From the NCBI GenBank assembly GCA_905234815.1, contig CAJOIX010000001.1:52603-116602 (forward strand): a stretch of 64,000 bases of DNA. The letters run 5' to 3'. Shown in pieces: positions 14,493-40,175 of the stretch. A model generated the notes under the pieces. That model saw nothing but the letters and a program-made list of their open reading frames with translations, was not told the origin of the DNA and ran no database searches. The position numbers and the translations under genes are program-made. This stretch comes from an uncultured Prevotella sp. Lineage in GTDB: Bacteria; Bacteroidota; Bacteroidia; Bacteroidales; Bacteroidaceae. The stretch's first letter is position 1. The number at the start of each line of letters is the position of its first letter.

Positions 14493-14565
14493 GACTCGTT
14501 AGCTCAGTTGGTAGAGCATCACACTTTTAATGTGGGGGTCTTGGGTTCGAGCCCCAAACGGGTCA
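14493..14565 (+). tRNA. tRNA-Lys(TTT)
   Basis: Cloverleaf: GACTCGT/ACGGGTC acceptor stem, D arm GCTC-GAGC, anticodon loop CTTTTAA, T arm TTGGG-TTCGAGC-CCCAA. Confidence 0.97.
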
Positions 14566-35154: not shown

Positions 35155-36417
35155 TTATATTCTATAGGTCCACGTTGAACAATTTAGGACTCCACCTTCT
35201 AATGCCACATCGTTATAATTTATTGTCTCAATAATCTTTTCGGGGAATATCTGTTTAAAGGTTGCGATAGCCTCAGCATCCTTATTACCTTCAACCTCGA
35301 AGACAGGGAGAATTATCAGATTACCTACTTCCAGATAATTAACGTAAATTCCTATAGCGTTGTCAAGATGCTTAGGATCCTTATACCCATAGAAGAAGGG
35401 CACATCAATATACTTGAGGTTATTTTCTTTTAAAACCTTTTCAATGCCATTGACCCAATACTTGTATTCATCTGCGCGATTGTTTCCCAATATCGTGTCG
35501 TGGTTTACAAAGCGAACCATGCCATCTGCATGGCCTGTATAATCGTCATTTTGGGCTGGAATAATGATTACTTCTGCCTCAAGCAAATCTGATAGTTCCT
35601 TGACTAGTTGCTCTTTGTTTGTGTATTCAGGATTCTCTGTGAAGATTCTGTCTGATATAATTGCACGACCGGAACAAAGTAAAACATTCCCACCGTCAAG
35701 GTTAATATTCGAAAATACAGGCTCAAATCCATTTTCCCGACACACCTCTCTCCAGTCAGAACGTGAATCTTCCCATTCTTTTTTGCCTTTCAGATAAGAC
35801 GGCTCGTAGCGGAATTGTATTAACTTGCCAGATTCGGTTTGTATTGGCATGTAATCCCTGCACCAAATATCCTTTGTACCTTTCAGCAGTCGATAATCTA
35901 TGCCATGCTTTTTCAAGATGGCGGTCAACCGATTGAAGCACTCAGGGAAATGCTCTTCAAGCAGTTCGGACAAATAGACTGTCTCTTTTTCTTTTTGATC
36001 TTCTGTTTTTTCAGTGGCTTCAGAAAAAGTCTCTTGTTTTTTAGCGTTCTTATTTTTCAGATCCCAATATTTCGTTCTGATTGTTGGATAATCATTGTTC
36101 ATAAACATCTCACACAGTTCCTTGGTAGGTTCCCAGTCATGTTTCAAGCACAAATCTGTAAAGACCGTCTCCTTGCCTCGCTTATTCAAAACGAAACTGT
36201 TTATGTAGTCAGATGATATGTGCTTACCAGCACGCAGAAGTATCCTATTCATTTTCCGAAGGACCTTCCGATGAGCCTTCGTCGATAAACTGCTATCAAC
36301 CAGGCTTTTCATCAATTCGCTCAGTTTAGGCTTTTTTACCCATTCGACAGCTTTGCCAATGACGGGAATGATACCAATCAATCCGATAATTGTTCCGATG
36401 ATGAACTCTGTACTCAT
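35155..36417 (-). CDS. Agmatine/peptidyl-arginine deiminase family protein with N-terminal TM helix and extra domain
   Basis: IWCRDYMP, LDGGN, TGHADG, YVNYL, GGVLNC; AT-rich. Confidence 0.85.
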   Translation of the reverse strand: MSTEFIIGTIIGLIGIIPVIGKAVEWVKKPKLSELMKSLVDSSLSTKAHRKVLRKMNRILLRAGKHISSDYINSFVLNKRGKETVFTDLCLKHDWEPTKELCEMFMNNDYPTIRTKYWDLKNKNAKKQETFSEATEKTEDQKEKETVYLSELLEEHFPECFNRLTAILKKHGIDYRLLKGTKDIWCRDYMPIQTESGKLIQFRYEPSYLKGKKEWEDSRSDWREVCRENGFEPVFSNINLDGGNVLLCSGRAIISDRIFTENPEYTNKEQLVKELSDLLEAEVIIIPAQNDDYTGHADGMVRFVNHDTILGNNRADEYKYWVNGIEKVLKENNLKYIDVPFFYGYKDPKHLDNAIGIYVNYLEVGNLIILPVFEVEGNKDAEAIATFKQIFPEKIIETINYNDVALEGGVLNCSTWTYRI

Positions 36418-36421
36418 ATGG

Positions 36422-37087
36422 CTATTTCTTTAATTTATTGTATTCTTCTGCTGATATTTCCTGAATATAATCTAATACATTCAACTTAGAGGAGGCCTTT
36501 TTCGTGCCATCCCAATCTACAAAAGTAATAAGGCGTCCACCACCACTTATCCAATAACTTGTTTCTATAATTCTGTGCTTCTTTTTCCCAGCTGTATAAC
36601 TATTGTCTCTTGTTATTTTAATCGATTTCAGGAATAACGAATTATGATTTATAGAAGCATTAATATACACATATTCGGATGTGCATTGATACTTATCTCC
36701 CCTATCTGTTTCAGTCCACTTGAAAGATTTGTCTTTATCAGGAAAAGCAAAAAGAATGAGTCTGTCTTGATACTGTGTACTCCCTGTTAATTTGTTCTGG
36801 CGAAGTTGGACATCTGAAATTACGGCATTCCCTTCTATGTGGTATCTATAGGTATTTTTGGCCGACATGGCCCCATACCCAATGTAGGTTTCTGCTACAA
36901 GATAATTGTCGTAGGCATAAGATTCAAAGCTGTACTGAGTTACCGACAAGAGCTTTCCATTACTGTCTGGCGAGCCGTATGTTCGGAAGCCGATAGGATA
37001 AAAATAATCCTCAAAATTATATTGCTGTGCGTGTACAGATATACCACATAGCATAATTGTCGCTAAAAGAAGAAATGATTTTTTCAT
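36422..37087 (-). CDS. Hypothetical secreted protein
   Basis: Signal peptide MKKSFLLLATIMLCGISVHA; aromatic/beta-rich; AT-rich; 4 bp from the next gene. Confidence 0.75.
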   Translation of the reverse strand: MKKSFLLLATIMLCGISVHAQQYNFEDYFYPIGFRTYGSPDSNGKLLSVTQYSFESYAYDNYLVAETYIGYGAMSAKNTYRYHIEGNAVISDVQLRQNKLTGSTQYQDRLILFAFPDKDKSFKWTETDRGDKYQCTSEYVYINASINHNSLFLKSIKITRDNSYTAGKKKHRIIETSYWISGGGRLITFVDWDGTKKASSKLNVLDYIQEISAEEYNKLKK

Positions 37088-37148
37088 TATCAGTAAGTTT
37101 TGTGTGCCTATAGACAATCCCGAGAGTTGGTCGTGAGTATAAATGAAA

Positions 37149-37378
37149 GACGTGGGTGTCTCTACTTATCTTATCCCACATCTGGGCTCTAGCATGCCTC
37201 GCAACAGGATAAGCAACTCGATAAAGCCCACGTCAGTGTGATATTGTAGAGATTTTACCTTATTATATATATAAGGAAAAGGTACAATACACCCAATGTG
37301 GACGTTCGTGGTTGCGATATCTTCAGTTGCTTGAATGTGCTAGATTCAGATGTTGAAGATAACGTTCAGTAAACGTCC
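37149..37378 (-). ncRNA. Candidate structured leader RNA with two long hairpins and complementary loops
   Basis: Hairpins 37149-37234 and 37300-37378; loops TCTAGCAT / GTGCTAGA. Confidence 0.55.
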
Positions 37379-37433
37379 TTTTCCAGTAAAAATATATGAC
37401 CCTCATGCCCTTACAGGCTCATCGAGTCTGTTG

Positions 37434-37465
37434 CAAAAATACGACTATATGGAGAAAACACCAAA
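37434..37465 (-). promoter_or_regulatory. sigma-ABfr promoter driving the islet operon
   Basis: Minus strand TTTG (37462-37465), 20 nt, TATTTTTG (37434-37441). Confidence 0.75.
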
Positions 37466-37522
37466 GGTATTTCGTATTTTTTAGCGCGAGCAAGTTAATA
37501 TAGTTGAGAGTTTAGAGTTTAT

Positions 37523-37918
37523 TTTTGTTAATTTTCGTGTTTTGATTTAACACTTCATTTTCGACTGTTTTAGCGCGGAAAATGATGTTTTGTTGGCCCA
37601 AATGCGACCTTTTTCGGGGCGATTTACCCGAAAATGTGACCAAAATGCACTGTTTTTACCCTCCAAATGCTAACATTTTGCGGTGCAAAACGTAAGCTCT
37701 TGCCGACCAAAAGCTATGCTTTTACTCAGCAAAAGCATAGCTTTTGGAAATCAACGGACGGCGAAAAAGTGCACAAAATCGTGTAAGCAATTCAGTATCA
37801 GTTGCTTAAATAAAACGTCGAAATTTGGCGTTATTTGGGCGCTCATCTGTTTTTGGTTCCAAAAAACGCAAAATAACGGCAGCTTGGAGCTGAAAAATCG
37901 GCGAGAAAATTAACAAAA
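37523..37918. mobile_element. MITE-like non-coding unit bounded by perfect 14-bp inverted repeats
   Basis: TTTTGTTAATTTTC 37523-37536 / GAAAATTAACAAAA 37905-37918; encloses ladder copy C; no TSD seen. Confidence 0.4.
37686..37746. repeat. 22-bp-period ladder, copy C (degenerate leftwards)
   Basis: Units at 37687 (degenerate), 37709 (CTATG), 37731 (CATAG). Confidence 0.85.
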
Positions 37919-38024
37919 TTTCACACTAATTAAGAAATGTGGCTGTCTAACCGCTTGTAAGTAGTTTTCACATGTAATTCTCACGAATGAGGCATTAATA
38001 AAAAATGAGCAACGAAAAAAACAA

Positions 38025-38121
38025 GGAAAAATTTGTGGCAACATAATAAATTTGTAACTTTACGCTTACTTGCGATTTGAAAAGGCCTTGATGACCAATC
38101 TGCAAGAATCGCTACCCAAAG
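38025..38121 (+). repeat. Direct-repeat copy of the glycogen-operon promoter and 5' CDS (lacking RBS and start codon)
   Basis: 38045-38066 = 40735-40756; 38066-38121 = 40795-40850 (56 bp identical). Confidence 0.92.
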
Positions 38122-38180
38122 GGACACAGTTGGCCCCCCCCTTCCCCTCCCTAAGGGATGGGCGATAGATTACTCTCACT

Positions 38181-38279
38181 ATGTGTGTGTCTATTTGCGT
38201 ATCTATGTGTGTATCTCCGAAGTCAACTTTCCTTTATCCATGCGGCTTCGCGTGGTGTTATGTGTGTATGTGCGTATCT
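38181..38279. repeat. Iteron-like 12-mer ATGTGYGTATCT repeats
   Basis: Three tandem units 38181-38216 plus 38260-38279. Confidence 0.7.
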
Positions 38280-38342
38280 TTTTTTAATTCCCTATAAAAC
38301 AAAAATCGTCAACTTCTTTCAGGGTTAAGATATTTCCCAATG

Positions 38343-38377
38343 TAAAAAATCGGCAGGAGGGTTGCTCCTGCCGATTG
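38343..38377 (-). terminator. Intrinsic terminator of the lipoprotein gene
   Basis: AATCGGCAGGAG / CTCCTGCCGATT 12-bp stem with T run on the minus strand. Confidence 0.85.
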
Positions 38378-38429
38378 GCGTATTGTTTATTTTGCTGCGC
38401 TGGCTGAATAGCCGCGCAAGAGATAAATT

Positions 38430-40175
38430 CTACTTGACCTCACGCACGAGGCGCACATTTCGCCCGTAGCTGCGATTAGCGCTGGTAAACTTCACTTCGT
38501 AACTGTTGAAGCGCATTTGGTAGGCTGAAATGCTACTGCTATTATTACTCGACCAGTAGTACCCTTGGGAACCTGCATCCTTCACAGTCGTGCCCTCCGT
38601 GCCCGCGCGGTTGCCCCCAGCCGGCAGGAAGACACAACCTTTGGCCTCAAGAGCCGTCCACTGGGCGGAAGTACACTTGGTAGCCCAATTACTGATGCCA
38701 TTGACGCGGTCGAGGTGGGCGAACTCTGAGGAGGCGAAGTCAACGCCGTCGGGGAACAGGATGATACCATTCACACCTGTGTCGTCGGTGTCGTCGGTGT
38801 AGATGGTTGCCTCGGTATAGCGTGCTTGGTCGGTCTCGCCCACCTTGCCGCCTGTTTCGCGGGTGTTGAACAGGAAAGCCCATTCTCCGTTAGCGCCGCC
38901 AGTCAGCGTGCGCCATCCGCTGTTGGCGGCATTGCCGCCGTTGGTGATGGCGAGGTTTCCCCAGTCATCCATCAGAGCTTCATTTGCGACGGTGCCGTAG
39001 TCGCCTTGCGTGGTGCTGTTGTTGATGCCGTACCATTTGGTTTCTTTGGAAGTAGTTGCCTTAACAAGGGAGGAAGCGCCTTCATAGGCGAAGAGGTCGA
39101 TGGTGCCGGCTGCACTGAGCATGAGTACGCCGTTGACTGTGATGTTGCCATTGCCATTGGCTGTCTTAGAGGCATCACCGATGTAGTCGTACTGATGCTC
39201 GGCGAACTTCCACGTCCAGTCTGAGAGTGCATCGCCGTCACCGTCGTAGGTTGCCTGCAGGTTACCCTGAGAGAAGTACACCTGGGTGCCGCTGGCATCT
39301 ACGGTGAACTTTCCGCCGATGGCACCCTCGGGCAGGCTGCTGCTCTGCCGTGCCATGCTCACGGTGATGGGCCAGAACTCTGCGTTGCTGAAGGTGATGC
39401 CAGTTTTCTCAAAGGTATAGGTGGTCTCGTCAACGGTAGCGGTGAGCGAGATGGTGGCGCTGCTGCCCGAGGCGGGGAAGGCTACATAGATAATGCCGTC
39501 GCCATTGGTGGTGTAGGTGCTGCTGGGGATGTCGCTCAGCGTCATGGTAGATGTGCCGTCGCTGATGGTGAAGGCCGAGGGGTTGATCGTCGCAGCGGTG
39601 CTCGCGTCCTTCAGGGTGAACTTGATGATGGCCTGCTGGCTCTCGAACGTGGCGATCTCGTTCACGGTGAACGACGACGAGGTCACGCTGCTCACGGTTA
39701 CCGTTGCGGTGGCGTAGTCGCAGTTAGCAGCGATATAGGCGAGCGTGCCATTCTGGCTGGTGTAATCGTCGCTGCAGAACTTCAGCAGGAGTTCGTCGCC
39801 AGTCTTGATGGCTGTTTCGCTGGTGAGTTCGCCCTTGAGCACGACGCTCTCGCCAGACGACTGGGCTGTGAGCGTGCCTGTGAGGGCTGCGCTCTGCGTG
39901 TTGTTATATACGGTTACCTCTTCGCCCGCTGCCCATGTGGCCGTGAGCACGTTGCCCGATTCGGAGAGGGCGCGGAGTATGCCTTTGTCGTTGGCTGCAA
40001 TGCCGCTGGCGTCGCTGCCCTTCGAGGCGTCCAGGGTGACAAAGTAGGTGTGGGCCGTGGGGTTTACCTCGGGCTCATCGATGACTGCGTTGCTGCTGTT
40101 GTCTGAGCAAGCGCTGAAGCCGAGACCTGCTGCGAGCAAGGTGGCCAGACTGAAAATCCTTGATGTCGTTTTCAT
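38430..40175 (-). CDS. Surface lipoprotein, fimbrillin-like N-terminus with C-terminal CLec-like domain
   Basis: Lipobox FSAC; WAAGEEVTVY, VYFSQGNLQ, WRTLT..EW, CVFLPAGG, GYYWSS, RSYGRNVRLV. Confidence 0.8.
   Translation of the reverse strand: MKTTSRIFSLATLLAAGLGFSACSDNSSNAVIDEPEVNPTAHTYFVTLDASKGSDASGIAANDKGILRALSESGNVLTATWAAGEEVTVYNNTQSAALTGTLTAQSSGESVVLKGELTSETAIKTGDELLLKFCSDDYTSQNGTLAYIAANCDYATATVTVSSVTSSSFTVNEIATFESQQAIIKFTLKDASTAATINPSAFTISDGTSTMTLSDIPSSTYTTNGDGIIYVAFPASGSSATISLTATVDETTYTFEKTGITFSNAEFWPITVSMARQSSSLPEGAIGGKFTVDASGTQVYFSQGNLQATYDGDGDALSDWTWKFAEHQYDYIGDASKTANGNGNITVNGVLMLSAAGTIDLFAYEGASSLVKATTSKETKWYGINNSTTQGDYGTVANEALMDDWGNLAITNGGNAANSGWRTLTGGANGEWAFLFNTRETGGKVGETDQARYTEATIYTDDTDDTGVNGIILFPDGVDFASSEFAHLDRVNGISNWATKCTSAQWTALEAKGCVFLPAGGNRAGTEGTTVKDAGSQGYYWSSNNSSSISAYQMRFNSYEVKFTSANRSYGRNVRLVREVK

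Follow-up and report, generated by a model that had tools for sequence, protein, structure and literature searches.

A conserved, strand-specific and intricately paired RNA lies in cis between a promoter and a variable set of cargo genes in Prevotella and related genera. The copy studied here is on the minus strand of the window, a stretch of 64,000 nucleotides from an uncultured Prevotella sp. (contig CAJOIX010000001.1). There, the region is best explained as the 5' leader of the two-gene messenger of a genomic islet. The leader probably serves as a cis-regulatory gate of some kind, acting either on termination versus read-through or on access to the start region of the downstream gene.

The initial annotation had placed a minus-strand promoter at 37434-37465, followed by two large hairpins with complementary apical loops. 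An exact Bacteroidota promoter was found at this location, and all of the listed stems and loops of both hairpins were recovered at their coordinates on the minus strand (Table 1). The islet operon had been put at about 340 nt from the promoter. The leader is indeed long, with about 345 nt between the promoter and the start codon in this copy and about 330 nt of RNA in the family, but the distance had to be corrected, as the start codon lies 347 nt from the -7 box. The leader had also been described as heading a horizontally acquired islet, and this agreed with the base composition, since the leader and both cargo genes fall within an islet of 38% GC in a genome of about 52% GC. The proposal of a cis-acting leader RNA was likewise upheld. 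The TAnnTTTG motif of the -7 box was unchanged in all 44 aligned copies, similarity to other genomes in a BLAST search with the leader started precisely at this box, and the conserved element ended about 10-25 nt before the start codon. The two hairpins, described there as alike in architecture but different in sequence, are not independent designs and behave as an inverted duplicate of each other.

Table 1. Positions in the window of the promoter, the leader parts and the two cargo genes
Feature	Position	Strand	Sequence and remarks
Bacteroidota sigma-A type promoter	37434..37465	minus	-33 TTTG 37465-37462, -7 TATTTTTG 37441-37434; read from sequence
P0 hairpin	37398..37428	minus	GACUC...GGGUC around GCC-loop-GGC; pair counting on 44 copies
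Hairpin 2	37300..37378	minus	a GGACGUU / a' AACGUCC, b UAUCUUC / b' GAAGAUA, apical GAAU/AUUC
Hairpin 2, middle stem at the DNA level		minus	TATCTTCA/TGAAGATA
Hairpin 2, unpaired segments	c 37353-37347, loop e 37344-37338, f 37330-37326	minus	
Middle domain	37242..37290	minus	helix UAUUGUA/UACAAUA enclosing a hairpin of variable length
Hairpin 1	37149..37234	minus	g GACGUGGG / g' CCCACGUC, h GCUUAUCC / h' GGAUAAG(A), GGC/GCC
Hairpin 1, stems at the DNA level		minus	GACGTGGG/CCCACGTC, GCTTATCC/GGATAAG(A), GGC/GCC
Hairpin 1, unpaired segments	f' 37205-37201, loop e' 37194-37188, c' 37184-37178	minus	
c with c'	37347..37353 with 37184-37178	minus	ACAUCUG with CAGAUGU; hypervariable inter-hairpin helix
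Loop e with loop e'	37338..37344 with 37194-37188	minus	UCUAGCA with UGCUAGA; kissing loops
f with f'	37326..37330 with 37205-37201	minus	GCAAC with GUUGC; second hypervariable inter-hairpin helix
U-rich tract	37141..37148	minus	UUUCAUUU, directly 3' of hairpin 1; terminator-like arrangement
Conserved tail module	37105..37122	minus	CGGGAUUGUCUAUAGGCA; family consensus GCYGAAUCUGGGnnGCUAUAGGCA
First cargo gene	36422..37087	minus	221-aa predicted lipoprotein (MKKSFLLLATIMLCG...); ATG at 37087; no Pfam match
Second cargo gene	35155..36417	minus	420 aa, PAD_porph-type deiminase domain (Pfam PF04371, E = 1.3e-26)

The N-terminus of the 420-aa protein is hydrophobic and, judged by eye, is probably a membrane helix. 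Components of type IX secretion are encoded in the genome of the window according to Pfam matches. Within the leader element of the window, the list of open reading frames held no ORF of at least 60 aa with a start codon. A stop-free frame of at least 60 codons was present in 39 of the 44 copies, a count that is uninformative on coding potential. Two further features were observed upstream of the leader. One is a near-perfect palindrome of 20+20 nt at 37707-37747 (CCAAAAGCTATGCTTTTACT / AGCAAAAGCATAGCTTTTGG) in the AT-rich spacer. Several other contigs of a DNA metagenome run matched only that piece and had higher depth, which suggests that it may be a dispersed repeat. The other is a strong terminator-like hairpin on the minus strand at 38348-38376, with 12 pairs followed by TTTTACATTG. 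It stands directly after a gene for a 581-aa protein (38430-40175) that had no Pfam match.

The structure was evaluated on an alignment of 44 distinct full-length copies, and then on 120 non-redundant copies. Covariation was ranked by corrected mutual information; uncorrected all-against-all screens were swamped by one-sided variation. The family consensus consists of the promoter, P0, hairpin 2, the middle helix, hairpin 1, the U-rich tract, often a small variable hairpin, and the tail module, which was kept in nearly all copies. The 361-nt leader folded at -97.9 kcal/mol, compared with -77.5 +/- 4.6 kcal/mol for shuffled sequences (z = -4.4). On the 44 homologues, 97.6% of the cells of the full structure were paired, compared with 92.0% after shuffling, and control structures slid along the sequence paired in merely 35-50% of cells. 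Double-sided changes amounted to 156 against an expectation of 44.7, and none of 500 shuffles reached this value. About 60% of the positions were near-invariant across copies, and many unpaired positions were among them.

Covariation was also seen in individual stems. The apical stem of hairpin 2 covaried in the 120 copies, with counts of AU110/GC10 and GC51/AU36 at its pairs. Stem b:b' of the same hairpin covaried too, and h:h' of hairpin 1 showed compensatory changes. In the middle domain, the pair of columns 162-194 was occupied as GC59/AU45/GU14 over the 120 copies. The hairpin enclosed by this helix varied from 0 to about 60 nt between copies, and in the window it corresponds to the small AT hairpin at 37276-37258.

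The most striking covariation was found between the two hairpins. Helices c:c' and f:f' gave the top mutual-information pairs of the whole element, and their sequence differed in almost every copy. In c:c', all 6 tested pairs changed on both sides in 12-28 of the 44 sequences, while 98.1% of cells remained paired; its 32 distinct versions comprised 208 Watson-Crick pairs, 6 GU and 5 AC. The 34 distinct versions of f:f' comprised 199 Watson-Crick pairs, 7 GU and 2 AC, and columns 121-123 with 234-236 of this helix had high mutual information over the 120 copies. The kissing loops e:e' were more conserved than either of these helices. They form seven Watson-Crick pairs in the window copy, 99% of their cells were paired in the 44 copies, and compensatory changes were present at three of the seven pairs in the 120 sequences. 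The repeats shared by the two hairpins are not continuous but contain conserved blocks that are not complementary, with AA facing GCC.

The match between the two sides was specific to each copy. When the X and Y segments of the 120 non-redundant copies were combined, matched partners had a mean energy of -26.1 kcal/mol and mismatched partners -15.6 kcal/mol, and the matched partner was the best one in 82 of the 120. The corresponding values in the 44 copies were -29.0 and -16.3 kcal/mol. The same was observed within one genome. A profile search revealed three leader copies in the incomplete genome of the window, whose loop pairs are UCUAGCA/UGCUAGA, CUUCGCA/UGCGAAG and UCUGGCA/UGCCAGA. Their matched combinations had energies of -26.0, -33.0 and -36.3 kcal/mol, and the cross combinations ranged from -9.2 to -21.0 kcal/mol. 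The complementarity of the apical loops, which the initial annotation had estimated at about seven Watson-Crick pairs, is exact in the window, and it is conserved and covarying across the family and within the genome itself. A check of loop covariation among homologues had been proposed together with it, and the loops covaried in both the 44 and the 120 copies. The related idea of a loop-loop kissing contact needs qualification. The pairing is real, but it is only one of three inter-hairpin helices, and the flanking helices between the internal loops carry most of the covariation.

A further long-range contact, termed PK0, may connect P0 with hairpin 1. The 5' internal loop of P0 (GAUGAG in the window) could base-pair with GCUUUAUC, a segment of the 5' internal loop in hairpin 1. 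Over the 120 copies, columns 30-216 were occupied as UA53/AU13/GU11/CG5 and columns 31-215 as UA89/CG10/UG8, and matched partners were more stable than mismatched ones (-4.4 vs -2.4 kcal/mol). We regard this predicted contact as moderately supported.

The inter-hairpin helices are compatible with more than one global arrangement. In 41 of the 44 copies, the nested, pseudoknot-free minimum-energy fold was one long rod that is held together by c:c', e:e' and f:f'. The two-hairpin state, when forced, was 11.5 kcal/mol less stable on average, a difference in which the kissing helices were not credited. The helices specific to the rod (b:h', b':h and a':g) were tried and had no covariation support. 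Because the sequences of stems a, b, g and h are nearly constant, covariation does not discriminate between the hairpins and the rod at these positions. In two shortened natural copies that lack the middle (L137 and L185), only the rod can form. On a reading of the topology, all supported helices could be accommodated in two stacked four-way junctions with linkers of 0-1 nt. The data are compatible with hairpins zipped side by side, with the rod, and with switching between these two states.

Hairpin 1 and the tract that follows it have a terminator-like arrangement. The tract following g' contained on average 5.5 U in 8 columns (range 4-7, 120 copies). It is interrupted, and a simple terminator scan did not call the stem and tract because the loop is too large for such a scan. 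A competing pairing was also noted. The flank of g' (AGACACCC, 37161-37154) can pair with the tail segment GGG..UGUCU (37121-37112), at the expense of g:g'. Matched partners of this pairing had -11.2 kcal/mol and mismatched partners -9.8 kcal/mol in the 120 copies. Its weak covariation may reflect merely the relatedness of subfamilies. As the tail segment lies downstream of the U tract, it is a poor fit to a classical antiterminator.

The leader is widespread in Prevotella. In a BLAST search, 91 of 400 other Prevotella genomes had a match (92 of 401 including the genome of the window), with identities of 67-79%, and nearly every full-length match began at the -7 box and stopped where hairpin 1 ends. 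A scan with exact motifs over one genome per prokaryote species found at least 120 contig stretches. The matches listed were mostly from Prevotella, and others came from Paraprevotella, Alloprevotella, Leyella stercorea and Bacteroidaceae metagenome-assembled genomes from rumen and gut. The cultured carriers among them include Prevotella sp. tc2-28 and Leyella stercorea DSM 18206. Several copies occurred in some Prevotella genomes. The two additional copies in the genome of the window, at C2:69863-70194 (+) and C51:3680-3974 (+), are more diverged, and each has matched c, e and f segments; the first heads a 108-aa predicted lipoprotein, and the second is truncated where its contig stops.

Neither Rfam 15 nor the literature searched contains the family. 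The comparison with Rfam that had been suggested for the leader found no matching family. At gathering thresholds, Rfam 15 identified only a tRNA (14493-14565) in the whole window, and a permissive search of 37000-38450 gave only chance matches (HOTTIP_1 at 15.7 bits and SurA at 10 bits). A keyword search of the literature found no description of the element, and the only occurrence of two conserved blocks was a chance one, in a paper on peony. With the leader as query, BLAST found nothing in collections of plasmids and phages, and the motif scan of viral contigs was equally without hits.

Variant copies suggest that the leader is subject to recombination. Seven truncated copies (L168, L124, L143, L157, L084, L146 and L080) keep the promoter, P0 and stems a and b, and they break after stem b or just after loop e, beyond which the sequence is unrelated. 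The clustering of these breakpoints suggests recurrent recombination inside the leader. The truncated leader of L168 runs into an ORF that by eye resembles HEPN-domain proteins, and that of L124 runs straight into an ORF. A mosaic copy was also found. The flanks of L036 are 100% identical to a paralogue in the same genome (L013), its paired segments X and Y share 98% and 92% identity with those of L043 from another genome, and its middle matches neither. Leader copies were often located within about 1 kb of a contig end (for example L035, L036, L037 and L049), which suggests a neighbourhood whose repeats or variation between strains make it hard to assemble.

Different copies of the leader are followed by unrelated genes, which mostly encode surface proteins, and in most cases the ORF begins 50-90 nt past hairpin 1. 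The commonest cargo consisted of surface proteins with BspA-type leucine-rich repeats (LRR_5), often behind a small ORF without a known family. Other cargo included Peptidase_C10, caspase, Tubulin_2, CotH, GH43, methyltransferase and PAD_porph proteins, together with many that have no family. A few cargo proteins matched models of defence systems. A five-gene cargo operon recurred in L038, L042, L046 and L073, encoding proteins of about 400-420, 147-157, 465-471, 1049-1127 and 152-227 aa, the first of which has a vWA-like motif by eye. This operon, which looks like a conflict or defence-type module, is probably the source of the Tubulin_2-family matches (3 of the 58 scanned cargo proteins). 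On the other side of the leader, the nearest upstream genes in about 40 loci were unrelated housekeeping genes. No recombinase was present among the 25 commonest of 127 Pfam families of the upstream neighbours, and no NusG-like gene was present among the 25 commonest Pfam families of the cargo.

Public metatranscriptomes contain contigs from this region. One of them covers 37107-37413 (X15 record 2), and another spans 36607-37355 and joins the leader to the ORF (X16 record 4). These contigs were assembled from RNA libraries that may contain DNA, and they are weakly consistent with transcription of the leader. Upstream of 37459, there was no RNA cover in three RNA runs, while a DNA run covered this part. 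The lack of RNA cover is not evidence for a start site because the contigs stop at different places.

Taken together, these features suggest how the gate might operate. Transcription would start just past the TAnnTTTG box. The RNA folds into P0 and two hairpins of about 80 nt, each presenting a 5' internal loop, an apical loop and a 3' internal loop. Through c:c', e:e' and f:f', the hairpins are either zipped side by side or, after a full strand exchange, merged into the rod. The tail before the start codon could pair with the 3' strand of hairpin 1, after which the U-rich tract is located. In this way, the leader would gate the expression of any accessory gene placed behind it, by early termination versus read-through or by access to the start region. 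The gating would probably follow recognition by a shared cellular factor rather than by a cargo-specific metabolite. A usual metabolite riboswitch is unlikely because the cargo has no common theme. The neighbouring genes point to no ligand, protein partner or signal.

Some of the same features could be accounted for without such a gate. The leader might load a processive antitermination factor, so that the RNA or a pause modifies the polymerase or recruits a NusG-type factor, and the polymerase would then read through long AT-rich foreign accessory operons. The occurrence of the same leader ahead of unrelated, often long, low-GC operons of accessory and surface proteins fits this model, and the strong conservation of unpaired regions suggests a shared trans-acting partner. 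Bacteroides is also known to use leader-specific NusG paralogues (PMC11685472). However, the capsule-operon leaders of that genus rely on a short pause site and a hairpin and not on a 300-nt fold (PMC11685472), and the commonest cargo families lacked a NusG-like gene. We consider antitermination an unlikely, though not a negligible, explanation. The leader might also be a constitutive structure that does not switch at all, protecting the messenger from RNase, insulating its translation, or both, as part of a portable expression cassette. A module that extends from the promoter to about 10-25 nt short of the ATG, and that is combined with a wide range of cargos, would suit this role; so would the mosaic recombination of leaders, the truncated copies that still head ORFs, and the fact that all well-supported helices fit one fold. 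Against this, near-invariance at about 60% of positions, many of them unpaired, is more constraint than a stabilizer needs, and the competing pairings (g:g' vs g':tail, and rod vs hairpins) are conserved. A purely structural role seems unlikely.

The arrangement of a promoter of its own and, in every copy, a long stable stem followed by a U-rich tract could also indicate a separate, stable and trans-acting small RNA of about 285 nt, whose transcription would mostly stop at the U tract, with read-through being incidental. The RNA contig of X15 record 2 roughly corresponds to the leader alone. Yet conservation extends beyond the U tract up to the start region, in most copies the distance to the following ORF is short and fixed, and the other RNA contig bridges leader and ORF. 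Moreover, the variable segments pair with each other and not with an outside target. A trans-acting RNA is rather improbable. Finally, the element might act at the DNA level. Its complementary segments could be the inverted repeats of an invertible switch, or they could serve as a site of recombination or as a hairpin signal of single-stranded DNA, for instance a transfer origin or single-strand promoter. The inter-hairpin segments are near-perfect inverted repeats, and some copies are truncated or deleted with breakpoints at a loop. However, G-U pairs outnumbered A-C mismatches by 1031 to 82 over all helices, and by 34:7 and 30:9 within the inter-hairpin helices alone. No such asymmetry is expected from repeats in duplex DNA or from the opposite strand; the folded molecule is therefore the sense-strand RNA. 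In addition, all 153 full-length copies (from 190 loci) were colinear, with the middle inverted in none. The assembled contigs of four runs contained no strand-switch joints. The promoter sits outside the inter-hairpin repeats, and there were no recombinases among the commonest upstream families and no matches in plasmids, phages or viral contigs. An inverton or DNA repeat was rejected on the G-U/A-C asymmetry, the colinear copies and the lack of recombinases among those families, and a DNA-level role of any kind is highly improbable. One resemblance was noted in this connection. The reverse complement of ACGAACGUU matches at 9 of 10 positions what we take to be the core of the Mpi recombinase repeat; it has no inverted partner in the element, and this candidate was dropped.

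Prevotella and its relatives dominate the rumen and many human gut communities. To our knowledge, almost nothing has been established about how these bacteria control their variable surface and defence genes. The leader matched in about a quarter of the Prevotella genomes that were searched, and the horizontally acquired operons that it precedes are numerous and unrelated to one another. Such a distribution points to shared regulation of the accessory genome. The RNA also has an unusual architecture: three helices join the two hairpins, and two of these helices are hypervariable while remaining almost perfectly complementary. It provides a natural example of internal-loop kissing, so far known mainly from designed RNA, and the hypervariable matched helices amount to ready-made compensatory mutations. 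More speculatively, the zipped hairpins might form a closed fold similar to a double-crossover tile, or defined dimers, in which the c and f segments act as barcodes that prevent mispairing between paralogues. The fold would then be the recognition platform of a yet unknown Bacteroidota system, although we consider this a long shot. If it were true, the platform might for instance be an antitermination RNA that modifies the polymerase, or else a sensor to which a dedicated protein binds, and the system would govern the pool of accessory surface-protein and defence genes in Prevotella of gut and rumen.

The leader can be distinguished from two kinds of RNA regulator described in Bacteroides. 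FopS and GibS are trans-acting small RNAs of about 65-70 nt, whose R1 seed targets the start regions of susC genes (PMC11697453). Both the size and the architecture of the present RNA differ, and identity with FopS/GibS was set aside on the basis of this description (PMC11697453). The leaders of Bacteroides capsule operons comprise a short pause site and a hairpin, and work with leader-specific NusG paralogues (PMC11685472); this is a different thing from the 300-nt fold found here (PMC11685472).

Among classical systems, the leader shares several features with terminator/antiterminator leaders and riboswitch platforms, which are likewise cis-acting structured 5' leaders between a promoter and a start codon. 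As in trp-type attenuators, mutually exclusive pairings are predicted (g' with g or with the tail; rod or two hairpins), and a stable stem is followed by a U-rich tract. Unlike these attenuators, the leader has no leader peptide, is far larger, and contains three inter-hairpin helices and a pseudoknot. In contrast to riboswitches, its cargo has no metabolic theme, so no ligand can be inferred. Fully complementary apical loops of 7 nt are also found in ColE1 RNA I/RNA II, in R1 CopA/CopT and in retroviral dimer initiation sites. As with antisense kissing loops, covariation keeps the pairs matched, and paralogues match each other poorly. Unlike in ColE1 and R1, the contact extends to both internal loops, over about 20 bp, and has no context of replication control. 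Both loops lie on the same strand, 150 nt apart in one leader, which argues against sense-antisense control.

Models for antitermination are provided by the HK022 put RNA, the Bacillus EAR element, RfaH, LoaP and UpxY leaders. Like the leader described here, put and EAR are structured, cis-acting elements with two stem-loops or a pseudoknot, located in the leaders of long surface or accessory operons. They are shorter, with about 70 nt for put and about 120 nt for EAR (an Rfam family), compared with about 330 nt, and there is no sequence or Rfam similarity. The large orphan RNAs raiA, ROOL, GOLLD, OLE and HEARO, some of which self-associate through kissing loops, gave no Rfam match even at a permissive E-value. 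They resemble the leader in being long, highly conserved multi-helix RNAs that emerged from comparative genomics. However, these RNAs are mostly free-standing genes, whereas the leader described here always stands directly before an ORF.
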